Source: Escherichia phage D6. From it: DNA of 64,000 nt. This document shows positions 49,494 through 59,949 of this stretch, piece after piece. The position numbers and the translations under genes were made by a program. Numbering within the stretch: the stretch's first letter is position 1; every line of letters starts with the position of its first letter. The notes beneath the pieces are model-generated. The model saw only the letters and a program-made list of their open reading frames with translations. It had not been told where the DNA came from and did not search any database. The stretch is from sequence record NC_050154.1; one strand, given 5' to 3'.

Positions 49494-49681
49494 ATTAATA
49501 TCATTCCTGATAACTGTTTGGAGGACATGATGCTTATAGCTTTAAGTGCGATCCACCAGCCATCTGTGAATGAGATTGGCCTGTTCTATGTGTTGTTTTT
49601 CGGGGCGTTGGCGCTACTTGAGCTTGGTATTGAGCTTTTCGCAGTGCTTATGTTTTGCGTCACGATTTTGGGGAAATTTTG

Positions 49682-50293
49682 ATGGTGAAACGTGTTTTGA
49701 AAATTTACATCGCGGGGCCGATGACTGGTTATCCAGATTACAACCGTGCTGCGTTTAATGCGAAAGCGAGCGAGCTGATGGCTGAAGGGCATATCGTTCT
49801 GAATCCAGCTGTGTTACCTGGTGGCCTTTGTCAGAGTGAATACATGGATATTTGCCTGGCAATGGTGCGTTCTGCTGATGCGATCTACTTGCTCAATCGA
49901 TGGGAGGAATCGATTGGTGCTCGTGCAGAGCACGCGCTGGCTGAAAAGCTGGGGCTGACTGTAATTTATGAGTCACCAACCAACATTGAATGCCAGGTTG
50001 CTCCGCATATTTACCGGGAACTGGTCAATGCACTGTGTGATATCGCTGCTGTATATCACGGCACAGAACAGCTTCGTGAGCGTTTAGCCCATACCATTTC
50101 CTATTACCTGTCTTTATCTCATGAGCACAAGCTCCGCCAGAAGGTAATGATCAAATTTATCATGAGGTTATCGAAATCCCTGGCAAACGCCGATCCAAAG
50201 AATCCATTACCGAAAGAGGCAATGAATTACCTGAAGTCCTGCAACGTTGTTTCTGAAGATGGCGTGCTTTTGGTTAGAAGGAGTTCTGCGTGA
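49682..50293 (+). CDS. DUF4406-like protein with C-terminal extension
   Basis: KIYIAGPMTGYPDYNRAAF N-terminus; C-terminal HIYRELVNALCD...GTEQLRERL module also present in the 56427 ORF. Confidence 0.6.
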   Translation: MVKRVLKIYIAGPMTGYPDYNRAAFNAKASELMAEGHIVLNPAVLPGGLCQSEYMDICLAMVRSADAIYLLNRWEESIGARAEHALAEKLGLTVIYESPTNIECQVAPHIYRELVNALCDIAAVYHGTEQLRERLAHTISYYLSLSHEHKLRQKVMIKFIMRLSKSLANADPKNPLPKEAMNYLKSCNVVSEDGVLLVRRSSA

Positions 50294-50607
50294 GCTGGCG
50301 GGGATGGGGAAGGGCAGAAATCATGATACTCCGCCAGTGCGCCGGGACTATGACAGTCGAGAGTATTGGGAGGCTGATCGGGCGTACCGGTAGTGCTGTC
50401 AGAACCAAAGCGCGGCAACTGCGGATCTGCATGATTCTGAAAGGAGACTTTCACCCGTCAGCCAAATACCGGCAGGGCGATATAGAACTGGCACGGCAAC
50501 TTCATCGGTGTGGTGTTCCCCGCCGTGAGATCGCGGAAAAACTCGAAATGCCCCTAGGCATGATTAATCAGTACGTTTATTTCGAAAGGAGAGTGTATGA
50601 AGTCTGA
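50290..50607 (+). CDS. putative HTH DNA-binding protein
   Basis: 105-aa ORF coupled to the upstream gene. Confidence 0.5.
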   Translation: MSWRGWGRAEIMILRQCAGTMTVESIGRLIGRTGSAVRTKARQLRICMILKGDFHPSAKYRQGDIELARQLHRCGVPRREIAEKLEMPLGMINQYVYFERRVYEV

Positions 50608-50953
50608 AGGTTTAACGCCCGCACAACTGGCAGAGCGTAACGCTGAGTATGTAACGGAAATTTCCCGACTTGAGAAAGCGTGTGCTGCGCTGGCGGCGGA
50701 GAATGCTGGGCTGAAACATGCAATGGCTGTAACTCTTGAGCATGTGTCGGTCACGGATGCAGGTCAGGCCGGAGTTGCTGCAATGATTATCAACGATGCC
50801 CTGCACCACAGCGAAACTCCAGCCACCGATGATTTTCTGGCTGAAGTACGTGCGCAGGGCGTGGAGATGTTTGCTGAGTGCGCATACACACTTGAACATC
50901 ATGATCACGCAGTAGCTTTTGCCGCTGAGCTTCGTACAGGAAATAAACAGTGA
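50597..50953 (+). CDS. hypothetical protein (paralogous module family)
   Basis: 118 aa; LAEVRAQGVEMFAE module similar to [13 protein letters not shown] in the next ORF. Confidence 0.5.
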   Translation: MKSEGLTPAQLAERNAEYVTEISRLEKACAALAAENAGLKHAMAVTLEHVSVTDAGQAGVAAMIINDALHHSETPATDDFLAEVRAQGVEMFAECAYTLEHHDHAVAFAAELRTGNKQ

Positions 50954-51618
50954 ATGAGATTTACTACCTGACGTTACGTGAACGTTATTCACCAAAACCA
51001 GCGCCTAAATGCTCTGTTTGTGGCGAGGAAATGTCAATGCAGCGCATATCTGGATCACATGTTGTTTATGCCTGTTCTGGCATGGAGGATGACGGATGCT
51101 TCAAAACTGGACGAACTTATGCTGACGAGCATTACAAAAAATCGCGCATAACAGTAGTTGATGATAGCGATCCTGATGTGATTGAACTGCTGGACGAGAA
51201 CGTGGAGATGGCTCTAACGCTTGAGAATCTGCGTGTTGAGCTGGAAGCCGCTAAAAAGTGTATTGCAGAGCTGGAAAGCAATTGCGGGGCGCTGGTGGCG
51301 GAATGCCAAAACAAAAAAGCAGCACTTGAGGAAATTCTTAGCCATCTCCCAATTAATCATCCAGATATAGACATCGCATGTGTAGCGAACATAGCTCATA
51401 ACAAATTAGGCGAGGCGAAAAGCACTACATCTGAAGCTTACCTTGTTGAAATACAGGCTCAGGGATTGGAGGCATTCGCTTTGACGATGCGCGATACCGG
51501 AGATGATCCATTTTTTGATTCCGTTGCTTCTGCTTGCGCGGATGCGGCTGACAGGTTCGCAGCCCTGCTTCGTAAAGGACAATCCTGCCTGCGCCCGAAC
51601 TTTGAAGGGAAAAGATGA
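50950..51618 (+). CDS. hypothetical protein with N-terminal Cys cluster and coiled coil
   Basis: 222-aa ORF, overlapping stop/start. Confidence 0.5.
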
Positions 51619-51938
51619 TGACCACATCGCATTCTGCAATTACCCAAGAAAAAGCCTTCAACATACTCGAACGACTAGAGACGCTCGCTACGGAGGAGGA
51701 TATATCCCCGGAGAAACTGGTTGAGTTCAGCCGTGTGATATTGCGTCGCAAGAACGATATGGAGCGGCTGACATCTGGCGCTCCATCCTTATCAGTCAGT
51801 CCAGCGCTTTATTGCAGCTTCTGCAACAAATCCCAGCACACCGTTAAAAAGTTAATTGCTGGGGACGCCGTTTTCATCTGCGACGAGTGTGTGGATGCGT
51901 GCAACAACGTTATCCGGGAAGAGGGCTTAAGAAAATGA
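51615..51938 (+). CDS. small protein with ClpX-type N-terminal zinc-binding domain at its C-terminus
   Basis: [39 protein letters not shown], near-colinear with the E. coli ClpX zinc finger as recalled. Confidence 0.75.
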
Positions 51939-52029
51939 ATGACGAATTTGACCGCTTTGAATTTTAACGGGGCGCACCGTCGCCCCGCATGGGAGGGGGA
52001 TACGATGAAAAAAGATGAGGCAGAATCCA

Positions 52030-52305
52030 ATGAATATCGACACGACAATAACGATCGATACGCTCCTAAATTCCGGTCTGGCACTTCTCGGTTGGTTTTA
52101 CATCATGTTCAGTGCGGGGAAGTGGGCGGCCTCTGTTTTTCTAAAGCAGTGGGGAAAGCGCCGCAAACAGGAAAAACGCCAGAAAGCGTTGGAGGCGTTC
52201 TATGACGCATTTGAACTTAGCCGCATTGAACCAGGCACAACAGCCAGGATAGCGACAAAAGGCGACCTGATGATAGTGATGTTCAGACAGGAGAAAACCA
52301 AATGA
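52030..52305 (+). CDS. small membrane protein
   Basis: Hydrophobic LALLGWFYIMFSAGKWAASVF then basic tail; coupled to the next gene. Confidence 0.45.
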   Translation: MNIDTTITIDTLLNSGLALLGWFYIMFSAGKWAASVFLKQWGKRRKQEKRQKALEAFYDAFELSRIEPGTTARIATKGDLMIVMFRQEKTK

Positions 52306-52526
52306 CAGAACAGACGATGACAAATCGCGAACTTGTTGATGCCGCGATTGAACTTGCTGGCGATTTTTATTCCATGATGGGGTACACGCATCGCCCAGGC
52401 TTCAAATATTGGGAGTCTCCGCACCCGCAAGAGCAACGGGTATTTCAAATGGCCTGTCGCGCTTTTGAAGTTATTCGCGGTTCTGATGTGATGGACGCGG
52501 TTGCTGATTTGGAGGATGAAGAGTGA
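52302..52526 (+). CDS. hypothetical protein
   Basis: 74-aa ORF. Confidence 0.5.
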   Translation: MTEQTMTNRELVDAAIELAGDFYSMMGYTHRPGFKYWESPHPQEQRVFQMACRAFEVIRGSDVMDAVADLEDEE

Positions 52527-52834
52527 ACACAATTAAAGAAATGCCGGTAGAACGTGATGAATATGGCTGCTGGACACATCCGGAGTATGAAAAGTTTTGC
52601 GCAGGTCGTGAATATATATCCACTGAGGAATTTGACGCCTGGATGAAGGAAAATAATCTTCAGTGGACTATTCGCAGTATGGATGAAGATGATTTTGATC
52701 TGGACGCAGCTGGTCCCGATATTGCCGTCTGGGAACCGGAGCGACCAGAGGGTGAAGGCTGGTTTGTTGGCTCTATTCATGACACTGAAGATGGTCCAGT
52801 TTGTATCTGGCTGCGGGAGAAGGTTGCCGCATGA
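52523..52834 (+). CDS. hypothetical protein
   Basis: 103-aa ORF. Confidence 0.5.
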
Positions 52835-53523
52835 TCCAGACTATGCATGAAGTGAATTTATATAGCCGTATTGATGGTTCTGGCTACAGAAACATATGGG
52901 TTGTTGGTGATCTGCATGGTTGCTACACCAGACTGATGTCCGAACTCCATCGTGTGGATTTTGACCCGGCGCAGGATTTACTGATATCTGTTGGCGACCT
53001 TATCGATCGCGGTACTGAAAATGTCGAATGTCTGGAACTATTGCAGATGCCCTGGTTCAGGGCAGTAATGGGGAACCATGAGCGGTTGATGCTTGATGCG
53101 TTAAGTCCTGATGGCAACGTGAATAACTGGCTAATGAATGGCGGACAATGGTTCTTCATGCTGGACACTGATCAGGAAATATTAGCCTGGGCGCTGGTGG
53201 AGCTGGTAAAGCGTCTGCCATATATCATTGAGTTGAACACCGGGCATGAAACTATCGTTATAGCCCATGCCGACTATCCAGGTGGAGAGTACCAGTTCGG
53301 TAAGGATGTGTCGCTTTTTGATGTTGTCTGGTCGCGCAGTCGCGTCGGTGATTCGATAGATGGCATTGGTGGAGAAATCACAGGCGCAGATCGCTTTATC
53401 TTTGGGCACACACCGGTACGAAGACCAAAAGCATACTGGAATCAGCACTACATAGACACGGGCGCGGTTTTTTGCGGAAATCTGACGCTAATGCAGGTGA
53501 AGGGAGGGCAGCTTAAAGTCTGA
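52831..53523 (+). CDS. Ser/Thr protein phosphatase, lambda-phosphatase/PrpA family
   Basis: GDLHGC, GDLIDRG, GNHE metallophosphatase motifs; colinear with E. coli PrpA as recalled. Confidence 0.9.
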
Positions 53524-53550
53524 TCAAATCATTTACGCACTCAAAATTAC

Positions 53551-53580
53551 GTTAGAACATTGATTTTAGTTTTCTAACAT
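53551..53580. promoter_or_regulatory. inverted pair of candidate C1-type operator half-sites
   Basis: GTTAGAACATTGATTTTAGTTTTCTAACAT, ~40 bp upstream of the 53622 ATG. Confidence 0.5.
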
Positions 53581-53621
53581 ATTATTTTACCGCTCGGAAC
53601 AAAACAGAGTCGGTATACATT

Positions 53622-54617
53622 ATGAGTGCAATAATCACACCTCATTTCGTAAACGGAGCTGGTGTGGCTGTCTTTCCGGTAGACAAGCCCACCAGTAACT
53701 ACATTGGCGCAGGTCGCCGTTTCATTATCTCCCCACTTCCGCGTGAACAGGCTGAAAACACGCCAGATGGCGTAGTGGATCTGAATTATTCGCTGGTTGC
53801 CAACCAGTCTCTGAAACCGTTTTTTCAAAGCGAGCGCGTATTTAACGCGTTAGGCGGTGAAGATTCGCTTGTTCATTGGGTAAGTTCCAATATCCACGAT
53901 TGCCAGGCGCACGATAAGCGCGATTGTAGCCACCAGCTAACCACTCATTTCTATAACGGCTCTGCCGTTCGCCTGTGCTGGAAGCATGATGCGGAATACA
54001 TGATGAAGGGGTACAGCAAGCTGGACGACCAGTTATCCCTGAATCGCGCCAACTGGGTTATGAACTGGGCTGCGAGCGAGTTAAAACTACCGCCAGAACG
54101 CGATCTGAGCATGGTTGAACTCACTTTTTGGGCCATTCGCCGGAATCTGAAAGATGAGCTGCCAGATGAAGCCGGTCGCATTGCATTTTGTCAGCCAAAA
54201 ACTGAAATCCCTACCGGTACGCTGAAAGAATCAGATATCACTTGGGAGCACAGTACCCGCGAGCTGGTGGACATAACCGCAGAGCAGATCGTCAACCTGT
54301 CTGTAGATGAGGATTCCGGCCTGCTTTATATGCGCCGACCAAAAGTGGTCCTCGGTAAAAGCCCAGCTTATCTCCGGTTTGTGGTTTCTCGTCCGTGCAT
54401 CGGATGCGGTGGCAAAGTTAACCACCCGTTCATGTACCGCGTCCGCTCGTTAAACGAACACGACCGCTGGGCTGTTCCTCTTTGCGATGACTGCGCCAGA
54501 AGCGCAGAAAACGATGTCCGGGCATGGGAAAAAGCACATGGCATACGACTTTATGTAGCCGCTAACCAGCTTTTCGACTTCGCCATCGAGCGCGGAGTGA
54601 TCACGTTTAATAACTGA
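53622..54617 (+). CDS. hypothetical protein with C-terminal zinc-ribbon-like Cys motifs
   Basis: 331 aa; PCIGCGG...PLCDDC. Confidence 0.5.
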   Translation: MSAIITPHFVNGAGVAVFPVDKPTSNYIGAGRRFIISPLPREQAENTPDGVVDLNYSLVANQSLKPFFQSERVFNALGGEDSLVHWVSSNIHDCQAHDKRDCSHQLTTHFYNGSAVRLCWKHDAEYMMKGYSKLDDQLSLNRANWVMNWAASELKLPPERDLSMVELTFWAIRRNLKDELPDEAGRIAFCQPKTEIPTGTLKESDITWEHSTRELVDITAEQIVNLSVDEDSGLLYMRRPKVVLGKSPAYLRFVVSRPCIGCGGKVNHPFMYRVRSLNEHDRWAVPLCDDCARSAENDVRAWEKAHGIRLYVAANQLFDFAIERGVITFNN

Positions 54618-58292: not shown

Positions 58293-58682
58293 ATGGGCTT
58301 CCCTTCTCCTGCGGCGGATTATGTTGAAAGCCGAATTTCTCTTGATCAGCAACTAATTAGACATCCATCAGCAACCTACTTCATGCGGGCAGCTGATAGC
58401 CATCACCGTGAGGGAATATTGCAGGGTGCTTTGCTGGTGGTTGATTCCTCACTTACTCCGGTTGATGGCTCACTGCTTATATGCGCTATGGAGGGGGAAT
58501 ATCGCGTAAAAAGATACCGGAAGTATCCGCGCCAGCACCTGGAGGATTTAAGCACCGGGAAGAAAGAGGCGTTACCAGTAGATGACGATGGTTACACGGG
58601 TAGTAATGCTGTTTTTGGTGTGATCACCCACATTATCAATGACGCCAGGGGCGGTGAATTTGATGATAGTCCTGCTATATGA
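58293..58682 (+). CDS. humD: UmuD'-like S24 peptidase-fold protein
   Basis: 129 aa; SATYFMRAADSHHREGI...GALLVVDSS; lacks the UmuD N-terminal arm. Confidence 0.85.
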   Translation: MGFPSPAADYVESRISLDQQLIRHPSATYFMRAADSHHREGILQGALLVVDSSLTPVDGSLLICAMEGEYRVKRYRKYPRQHLEDLSTGKKEALPVDDDGYTGSNAVFGVITHIINDARGGEFDDSPAI

Positions 58683-59347: not shown

Positions 59348-59569
59348 ATGCAATCCATTAACTTCCGTACCGCGCGCGGCAACCTTTCTGAAGTGCTCAA
59401 CAATGTTGAAGCCGGGGAAGAGGTTGAAATCACCCGCAGAGGCCGTGAGCCAGCAGTAATTGTTAGCAAGGCTACTTTTGAAGCCTACAAAAAAGCGGCG
59501 CTGGATGCCGAATTTGCATCCCTGTTTGACACCCTGGACTCCACCAACAAGGAACTGGTTAACCGATAA
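59348..59569 (+). CDS. phd: Phd antitoxin
   Basis: [73 protein letters not shown], matches P1 Phd as recalled. Confidence 0.97.
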
Positions 59570-59949
59570 TGAGGCATATATCACCGGAAGAACTTATTGC
59601 GCTTCATGATGCGAATATAAGCCGCTACGGTGGCCTGCCGGGAATGTCAGATCCGGGTAGGGCAGAGGCCATTATCGGGAGAGTTCAGGCCAGAGTTGCC
59701 TACGAAGAGATCAGCGACCTTTTCGAAGTCTCCGCCACCTACCTGGTGGCTACAGCGAGAGGGCATATATTCAATGATGCCAATAAGCGTACCGCGCTAA
59801 ACAGTGCGCTGCTATTTCTACGCCGTAACGGGGTTCAGGTATTTGATTCACCTGAACTGGCAGACCTTACTGTAGGCGCTGCGACTGGCGAGATATCTGT
59901 ATCTTCTGTCGCCGACACGTTACGTAGATTGTATGGTTCTGCGGAGTAG
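59569..59949 (+). CDS. doc: Doc toxin (Fic-fold kinase)
   Basis: [11 protein letters not shown] Fic-type motif; full-length match to P1 Doc as recalled. Confidence 0.97.

Follow-up and report, generated by a model that had tools for sequence, protein, structure and literature searches.

A phage-plasmid protein with a C-terminal ClpX-type zinc-binding domain and no AAA+ module, a possible decoy of the ClpX N-domain

Background

Escherichia phage D6 (sequence record NC_050154.1) carries, within the 64,000 nucleotides that were analysed (the whole of this stretch is called the window below), a gene for a protein of 107 amino acids whose C-terminal part is a ClpX-type zinc-binding domain (ZBD). 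The protein belongs securely to the ClpX zinc-finger domain family and is not a ClpX. Judging from the residues that it retains, and by analogy with the free domain of the host studied in vitro, we tentatively propose that this motor-less ZBD protein is a decoy which would compete with ClpX for clients docking on its N-domain, a proposal that we place somewhat below an even chance.

The ClpXP protease governs sigma-S, proteins of the SOS response and of mutagenesis, antitoxins such as Phd of P1, replication initiators of the lambda-O type and the transposition of Mu, and much of its selectivity passes through the small N-terminal ZBD of ClpX. The ZBD itself and the interference of phages with host proteases are already known; a natural motor-less ZBD joined to a dedicated partner domain is not known to have been characterised. 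An earlier reading of the window, made from its letters alone (the sequence-only reading), knew of no characterised protein of this architecture. In agreement with it, a literature search, to which most subscription journals were out of reach, found no study of a phage-encoded stand-alone ZBD.

Results

Identity and fold of the zinc-binding domain

The gene and the parts of its product have the following positions in the window.

51615-51938, plus strand: coding sequence of the 107-aa protein together with its stop codon (open reading frame list, sequence, full-length match to phrog_6797).
51604-51609, plus strand: Shine-Dalgarno-like GAAGGG, 5 nt 5′ of the ATG (read from the sequence).
51645-51773, plus strand: N-terminal two-helix hairpin, residues 11-53 (helices 11-27 and 32-53), family-specific (AlphaFold2 model, predicted local distance difference test score, pLDDT, of 65-79 by block).
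51774-51803, plus strand: flexible Ser/Pro/Ala-rich linker, residues 54-63 (low pLDDT, substitution rates, variability in alignments).
51804-51923, plus strand: ClpX-type ZBD, residues 64-103, a treble-clef C4 zinc finger with the pocket markers F69 (ClpX F16) and V99 (ClpX I46) (Pfam, match to sequences of the PDB, superposition, conservation, substitution rates).
51813-51815, 51822-51824, 51879-51881 and 51888-51890, plus strand: predicted zinc ligands C67, C70, C89 and C92.
51858-51869, plus strand: beta-hairpin turn A82-G83-D84-A85, counterpart of the adaptor-docking loop A29-G30-P31-S32 of E. coli ClpX.

The open reading frame (ORF) lies exactly where the sequence-only reading had placed it, and the three parts of the architecture described there, namely a C-terminal ClpX-type ZBD with four cysteines, an N-terminal half unrelated to ClpX and the lack of an AAA+ module, were all borne out. 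The Pfam profile PF06689 (zf-C4_ClpX) matched residues 66-102 over its positions 2-39 of 39 with E=3.4e-17 and 62.5 bits (cut-off 27), which is far above chance. Residues 64-103 aligned without gaps to the ZBD chains 2ds5 and 1ovx of E. coli ClpX (E ~2e-17), 30 of 40 residues (75%) being identical, and the pattern of zinc-ligand cysteines, CxxC-18-CxxC, is intact. The NCBIfam ClpX equivalogs TIGR00382 and PRK05342 reached only 43.8 and 45.5 bits where their cut-offs are 370.75 and 359; since they were matched at profile positions 5-47 only and the protein ends at residue 107, it has no AAA+ module.

The AlphaFold2 model, built on a family alignment of 18 sequences, has a mean pLDDT of 72.5. 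Its ZBD part (pLDDT of 75-88 by block) consists of strands 80-82 and 87-89 and helix 90-106, and was superposed by Foldseek on the crystal structures 2ds5, 2ds6, 2ds7 and 2ds8 with a root mean square deviation of 0.5 Å over 38 residues, the target TM-scores for 2ds6, 2ds8 and 2ds5 being 0.83-0.92. The cysteine spacing, which the sequence-only reading had named beforehand as a point on which its proposal could fail, is thus compatible with the ClpX zinc-finger fold in the predicted structure.

Conserved pocket and altered docking loop

Residue n of mature ClpX corresponds to residue n+53 of the phage protein. The four zinc cysteines and F69 are invariant in all 28 unique ZBDs of the family (28/28), and the position of ClpX I46 is occupied by isoleucine in 14/28 and by valine in 12/28. 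In ClpX the hydrophobic pocket region around F16 and I46 overlaps the lambda-O site, and SspB and RssB bind there too (PMC7804408). The docking loop differs from that of the host at two of its four positions (AGDA against AGPS), and AGPS is retained only in the clade of P88 gp19 and the homologs P0050 and P0055. Further systematic departures from ClpX were seen at its G18, E23, R25, Y34, L42 and D45. By sequence comparison, the putative peptide-binding pocket is conserved and the adaptor loop is shifted towards acidic residues in the clade of the window protein.

In human CLPX, the adaptor-docking loop comprises residues 120-123 (SSTR), and its mutation abolishes adaptor docking and leaves peptide binding unchanged (PMC7647994). 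Because the cysteine spacing is identical, SSTR (taken from a human segment that was validated against PDB chains) aligns without gaps to the AGPS of E. coli and the AGDA of the phage protein.

N-terminal hairpin and linker

No match to the first ~63 residues was found in Pfam, NCBIfam or the sequences of the PDB, no solved structure matched the hairpin when the AlphaFold2 model was searched with Foldseek, and the protein itself had no match to Ead_Ea22 (PF13935) at E<=1. The exhaustive HMMER search with residues 1-63 against 1.84 billion representatives returned 10 proteins at E<=0.001: the family members P0001 and P0048, the proteins P0050-P0055 with the same helical part, and the long multi-stretch proteins P0049 and P0056. 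Linker residues 57-61 have pLDDT values below 50. An XB-like docking motif in the hairpin was considered and rejected: the LRRK of helix 2, otherwise invariant, becomes [LI]RR[KE] in the P88 clade and misfits LKxh/LRVVK.

Selection and origin

The ratio of non-synonymous to synonymous substitution rates (dN/dS), taken from pooled pairwise Nei-Gojobori comparisons of 21 unique coding sequences, was 0.29 for the helical hairpin (residues 9-53), 1.27 for the linker (54-63) and 0.55 for the ZBD (64-103); the estimates are rough, owing to the non-independence of the pairs and to recombination in the region. Two constrained modules on a neutral tether are nevertheless clear, both folded parts being under purifying selection. 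The DNA of the ZBD is 66% identical to clpX of K-12 and 50% identical at third codon positions, which rules out a recent capture from host clpX; the same codon is used at 15 of the 30 amino acids that are identical to K-12 ClpX.

Family and distribution

The protein matched phrog_6797, labelled by PHROG as of unknown function, with E=2.6e-57 (its residues 2-106 covering positions 1-105 of the 107 in the profile), and RefSeq names its homologs "ClpX C4-type zinc finger protein"; the family is therefore already catalogued in databases. The older GenBank name "carboxylate--amine ligase", borne by P0001, P0004, P0005 and gp19 of phage P88, has no support in the sequences and appears to be a propagated annotation error.

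Homologous DNA was detected in 111 of 5,426 complete E. coli genomes (~2%), with 105 of the 112 places on plasmids. P1-like phage-plasmids are the main carriers among these genomes, and the neighbouring ref allele was present in 101 E. coli genomes. Members more than 60% identical to the window protein come from Escherichia or Salmonella only, where the source gives a name. A collection of viral contigs contained 36 full-length homologous loci, and tblastn on annotated phage genomes matched 43 records, none of them named P1 or P7. The scan of one genome per species returned ZBD matches only, presumably to clpX itself, and no full-length relative.

Three backbones carry the gene: P1-like phage-plasmids, lambdoid-type prophages and P2-like prophages. 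It is located in the accessory regions of the lambdoid-type prophages, with Ead_Ea22 directly upstream and DUF551 and DUF4942 nearby, and in the P2-like prophages it occupies the gap between the replication gene A and the portal gene Q. The isolated P2-like phage P88 encodes a homolog, gp19, which is 47% identical to the window protein. In P2 itself the A-Q gap houses old and tin, and it is a known hotspot at which accessory and defence genes are found. In this gap (loci L051-L056, and L057, which is phage P88) the genes directly upstream of that for the ZBD protein encode an actin ATPase of the ParM/StbA kind and a Plasmid_stab_B protein; they form a partition pair of the plasmid type, carried here by a P2-like phage that integrates. 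By synteny across loci, an Ead/Ea22 gene adjoins the ZBD gene in every genomic context.

Several homologs are mosaics. Some of P0001, P0004, P0008, P0011 and the products of L036-L038, P0001 and L036-L038 among them, start with the N-terminus (MKSEGLTPAQLAERNAEL...) of the Ea22-N-like ORF found at 50597 in the window, while in P0027 a different Ea22-like coiled coil, ending ...AAENAGLKS, is joined to the same linker and ZBD. Judging from these sequences, the Ea22-type coiled coils seem to serve as joints at which recombination moves the ZBD cassette. At two of the 36 viral loci (L031 and L042) the ZBD is cut after the third cysteine (…ICDECGCVQQNY…) and read into a downstream ORF of ~175 aa, which represents either decay or a new fusion. 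The two-part architecture is kept in P0050, P0055 and P88 gp19, whose hairpins are only 40-52% identical to that of the window protein. A metagenome protein of 142 aa, P0025, has two tandem ClpX-type ZBDs and no AAA+ module.

Stand-alone ZBD genes in other phages

Phages unrelated to the carriers above also encode complete ZBDs on their own. Pseudomonas phage phi1 has a complete ZBD ORF of 65 aa between the replication gene P and ninG. The annotated gp170 of Caulobacter phage Cr30 (L059, record positions 81470-81709) has 41 aa and begins in the middle of a ZBD; the frame is open 5′ of its start and encodes a complete four-Cys ZBD of about 72-79 aa, so that the deposited annotation is probably truncated. 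Stand-alone ZBD ORFs of 69 aa were present in each of the viral contigs L047-L049, and two further PHROG families, phrog_12435 and phrog_5259, match the ZBD. The ZBD gene follows replication genes in P2-like and D3-like phages, a position that would fit a role in protecting replication proteins.

Genomic setting in the phage-plasmid

The window is a P1-like phage-plasmid, its part from 40 to 64 kb being 98% identical to ~90-kb plasmids of E. coli and Salmonella. The gene is embedded in the following surroundings.

49655-54617, plus strand: same-strand accessory block containing the ZBD gene (ORFs, Pfam, NCBIfam, annotation of a homologous plasmid).
50950-51618, plus strand: upstream Ead/Ea22-like gene, 222 aa (Pfam PF13935, E=5.8e-11).

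The block comprises, in order, genes for a DUF4406 protein, a small DNA-binding-like protein, the Ea22-N-like ORF, the Ead/Ea22 protein, the ZBD protein, a DUF4752 protein, two small hypothetical proteins, a PrpA-like Ser/Thr phosphatase and a DUF968 protein. It is conserved in P1-like viral contigs, and the RefSeq annotation of the homologous plasmid places Ref, Icd-like, Rha-family and ash-family genes around it. As read from the sequence, the ZBD gene has 107 codons, is ATG-initiated and opens with ATGATG; many homologs (MTTSHSA...) use the second in-frame ATG, at 51618, as their start. The first ATG overlaps the TGA of the Ead/Ea22-like gene in an ATGA at 51615-51618, which suggests translational coupling.

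The Ead/Ea22-like protein begins with a CxxC...C..C motif (CSVCGEEM...), followed by a coiled coil. By its sequence the motif is probably a zinc ribbon, in which case this gene and the adjacent, translationally coupled ZBD gene would each specify a small zinc module. The phosphatase, PrpA/PrpB-like (52801-53523; NF008516, E=2e-82), and the DUF4406 protein (49655-50293) are products of further accessory genes of the host-physiology type and may act together with the ZBD protein.

Phd of P1 (100% identity), Doc and a UmuD′-like HumD are encoded at 58.3-59.9 kb, as found by tblastn, whose matches validate the query sequences; the coordinates listed for phd, doc and humD (just upstream) are 59348-59946 and 58293-58682. 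Phd is a published ClpXP substrate, and UmuD and UmuD′ are ClpXP clients. One element thus carries a ZBD copy together with ClpXP-linked proteins; phd, doc and humD are core P1 genes and are not specific to the cassette. The sequence-only reading had proposed a search for homologs that co-occur with known ClpXP substrates. Such co-occurrence found no support: none of these substrates was among the called genes in the P2-like and lambdoid contexts, and the presence of three core genes in P1-like elements does not amount to a specific association.

The consensus of the P1 C1 operator, ATTGCTCTAATAAATTT, had no match with three or fewer mismatches anywhere in the 64-kb window, which suggests an immunity specificity other than those of P1 and P7. 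The sigma-70 scan of 48.7-55 kb found no promoter on the plus strand, and the six proteins comprising the ZBD protein and its five nearest neighbours had no match at E<=0.01 among the PADLOC-DB defence profiles.

Discussion

A decoy of the ClpX N-domain

The proposal of a decoy builds on the identity and the fold of the domain, on the retention of its zinc ligands and pocket markers, on purifying selection and on the presence of the gene as a mobile accessory gene in three types of phages. The phage ZBD would bind zinc and form dimers like the host domain, and would compete for clients that need to dock on the N-domain before they are degraded or remodelled by ClpXP. Candidates are the cargo delivered by adaptors (sigma-S by RssB, ssrA-tagged proteins by SspB) and substrates of the lambda-O, MuA or UmuD type that depend on the N-domain. 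One would then expect a selective damping of the N-domain-dependent activity of ClpXP, while the direct degradation of substrates recognised by the pore would continue. The helical hairpin on its flexible linker would provide a second, family-specific interaction, either additional oligomerisation or the binding of another partner, and its strong constraint suggests a protein that is not just a bare decoy. The sequence-only reading had likewise suggested that a free copy of the domain could titrate adaptors, pair with ClpX or redirect ClpXP and so shield phage proteins. The precedent comes from experiments with host proteins: ClpX deprived of its ZBD does not degrade sigma-S and still degrades ssrA-tagged substrates, and the free E. 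coli ZBD at 5-20 µM inhibits the RssB-mediated breakdown of sigma-S by 0.6 µM ClpXP in vitro (PMC7226468). XB-containing peptides bind to the immobilised ZBD with dissociation constants (KD) of 35-82 nM (PMC12373786).

Several observations weigh against a decoy of this kind. The inhibition in vitro required a roughly 10-30-fold molar excess of the ZBD over ClpXP. The loop of the family has the form [A/T]-G-[D/E]-x, with the position of P31 taken by an acidic residue in 24/28 ZBDs and that of S32 variable; since mutation of the corresponding loop abolishes adaptor docking in human CLPX, SspB and RssB may not bind to the AGDA loop, and the clients may not be these canonical adaptors. Within the close family the hairpin is under stronger constraint than the ZBD, whereas a pure mimic would predict otherwise, and the broken ZBDs at two of the 36 viral loci (L031 and L042) indicate that the gene is dispensable and can be lost.

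Alternative explanations

The proposal that we consider the strongest rival, although in our judgement it is rather doubtful, is that the ZBD works independently of ClpX, as a compact zinc-stabilised module for dimerisation or peptide binding within an Ead/Ea22 (exo-xis-like) accessory factor, for instance a hairpin-driven modulator of the lysis-lysogeny decision, of replication or of host physiology. The constant neighbourhood of an Ead/Ea22 gene, the divergence of the docking loop from the host and the mosaics (P0001, L036-L038 and P0027), in which the ZBD behaves like a C-terminal module that can be exchanged, are all in keeping with it, and zf-C4_ClpX is found also outside ClpX, e.g. in cyanobacterial sigma-factor architectures (one paper). 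Against such a role, the family ZBDs have kept 75-78% identity to the host ZBD, including the F16/I46 pocket, although the N-terminal parts are only 40-50% identical across clades, and the bare ZBD-only ORFs of other phages are hard to explain except through ligands of the ZBD.

ClpX itself could also be the target, with the protein serving as a poison subunit or as a new adaptor, by forming a ZBD heterodimer or by docking in some other way on the hexamer; the hairpin so placed would either bring in a specific phage or host protein to be degraded or remodelled, or block access to the pore. Its layout resembles that of an adaptor, a flexible neutral linker connecting a conserved binding module with a docking module, and the hairpin, with the lowest dN/dS, is the most constrained part, as expected for the recognition of a specific partner. 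ZBDs are dimerisation domains: dimers were demonstrated by cross-linking (PMC7226468) and, for the human domain, by size-exclusion chromatography (PMC7647994). The 75-78% identity to the host ZBD would favour mixed dimers. Position 42, however, a leucine in ClpX and a candidate site of the dimer interface, is V, A, D or L in the family, and the hairpin has no homologs outside the family and hence no identifiable partner. The dimers of the host ZBD are moreover said to have been described by Wojtyra and colleagues in 2003 as very stable and constitutive, which argues against an exchange of subunits. On balance we regard this mode of action as unlikely. That the gene is a decaying, functionless remnant of a captured 5′ end of clpX is very improbable, even though most E. 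coli genomes are devoid of it and the broken ZBD is fused to a downstream ORF at two of the 36 viral loci. The ORF is intact, purifying selection acts on both of its folded parts and the linker is neutral, the ZBD is C-terminal and stands behind a conserved non-ClpX domain, the gene has been retained in three unrelated phage backbones, and synonymous sites are saturated relative to host clpX.

Implications

If the decoy reading is true, it would be the first case in which a phage interferes with a host AAA+ protease through mimicry of its docking domain. The gene could then affect stress responses, plasmid addiction, prophage induction or the competition between phages, and it would offer a genetic tool with which the adaptor-dependent branch of ClpXP alone could be switched off. 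A broader and less probable suggestion, drawn from the sequences and from the analogy above, is that stand-alone ZBDs are a recurrent strategy which has evolved several times, in phages of Escherichia, Pseudomonas and Caulobacter, and reprograms the clients of ClpXP, the present family with its acidified loop and its hairpin being a decoy or bridge of switched specificity. Such a protein would trap one basic XB-like tail, or a replication or transposition protein, and could stabilise ClpXP-sensitive proteins of the phage or exclude competitors that depend on the N-domain, e.g. Mu-like phages.

Comparison with known systems

The closest known relative is the ZBD of host ClpX, with which the phage domain shares the fold, the CxxC-18-CxxC spacing, three quarters of its residues (30/40) and the pocket positions F16 and I46 as F and V/I. 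The host domain is N-terminal and sits on an AAA+ motor, whereas the phage copy is C-terminal, follows a hairpin and has the AGDA loop. The short ORFs of phi1, Cr30 and L047-L049, often mislabelled as Clp protease or ATP-binding subunit, resemble the window protein in having a four-Cys ClpX-type ZBD, no AAA+ module and an early or accessory gene setting, and differ from it in the absence of the N-terminal hairpin, in a ZBD identity of ~45-48% and in their hosts. The recombinant free ZBD of ClpX (PMC7226468) is likewise motor-less, and its inhibition of RssB-dependent degradation of sigma-S is the very activity proposed here for the phage protein; it was made in the laboratory and has the native sequence of the host, whereas the phage protein adds a domain and an altered loop, and its activity is a proposal.

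Phage inhibitors of host proteases include RexB of lambda, which acts on ClpP proteases, and PinA of T4 and gp4.5 of T7, which act on Lon (PMC10286901). The logic that we propose for the ZBD protein is the same, in that a phage or prophage protein would dampen host proteolysis and, for example, stabilise phage proteins or antitoxins; the sequences and mechanisms of RexB, PinA and gp4.5 are unrelated to it, none of them mimics a domain of the protease, and an effect of the phage ZBD on proteolysis is so far our inference. A similar outcome is achieved in E. coli by the anti-adaptors IraD, IraM and IraP, small proteins which stop the delivery of sigma-S to ClpXP by RssB. Unlike the phage protein they are encoded by the host and show specificity for RssB, and their folds are unrelated. 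The proposed docking site of the ZBD on RssB overlaps that of IraD (PMC7226468), so that a free ZBD would share its site of action with this anti-adaptor.

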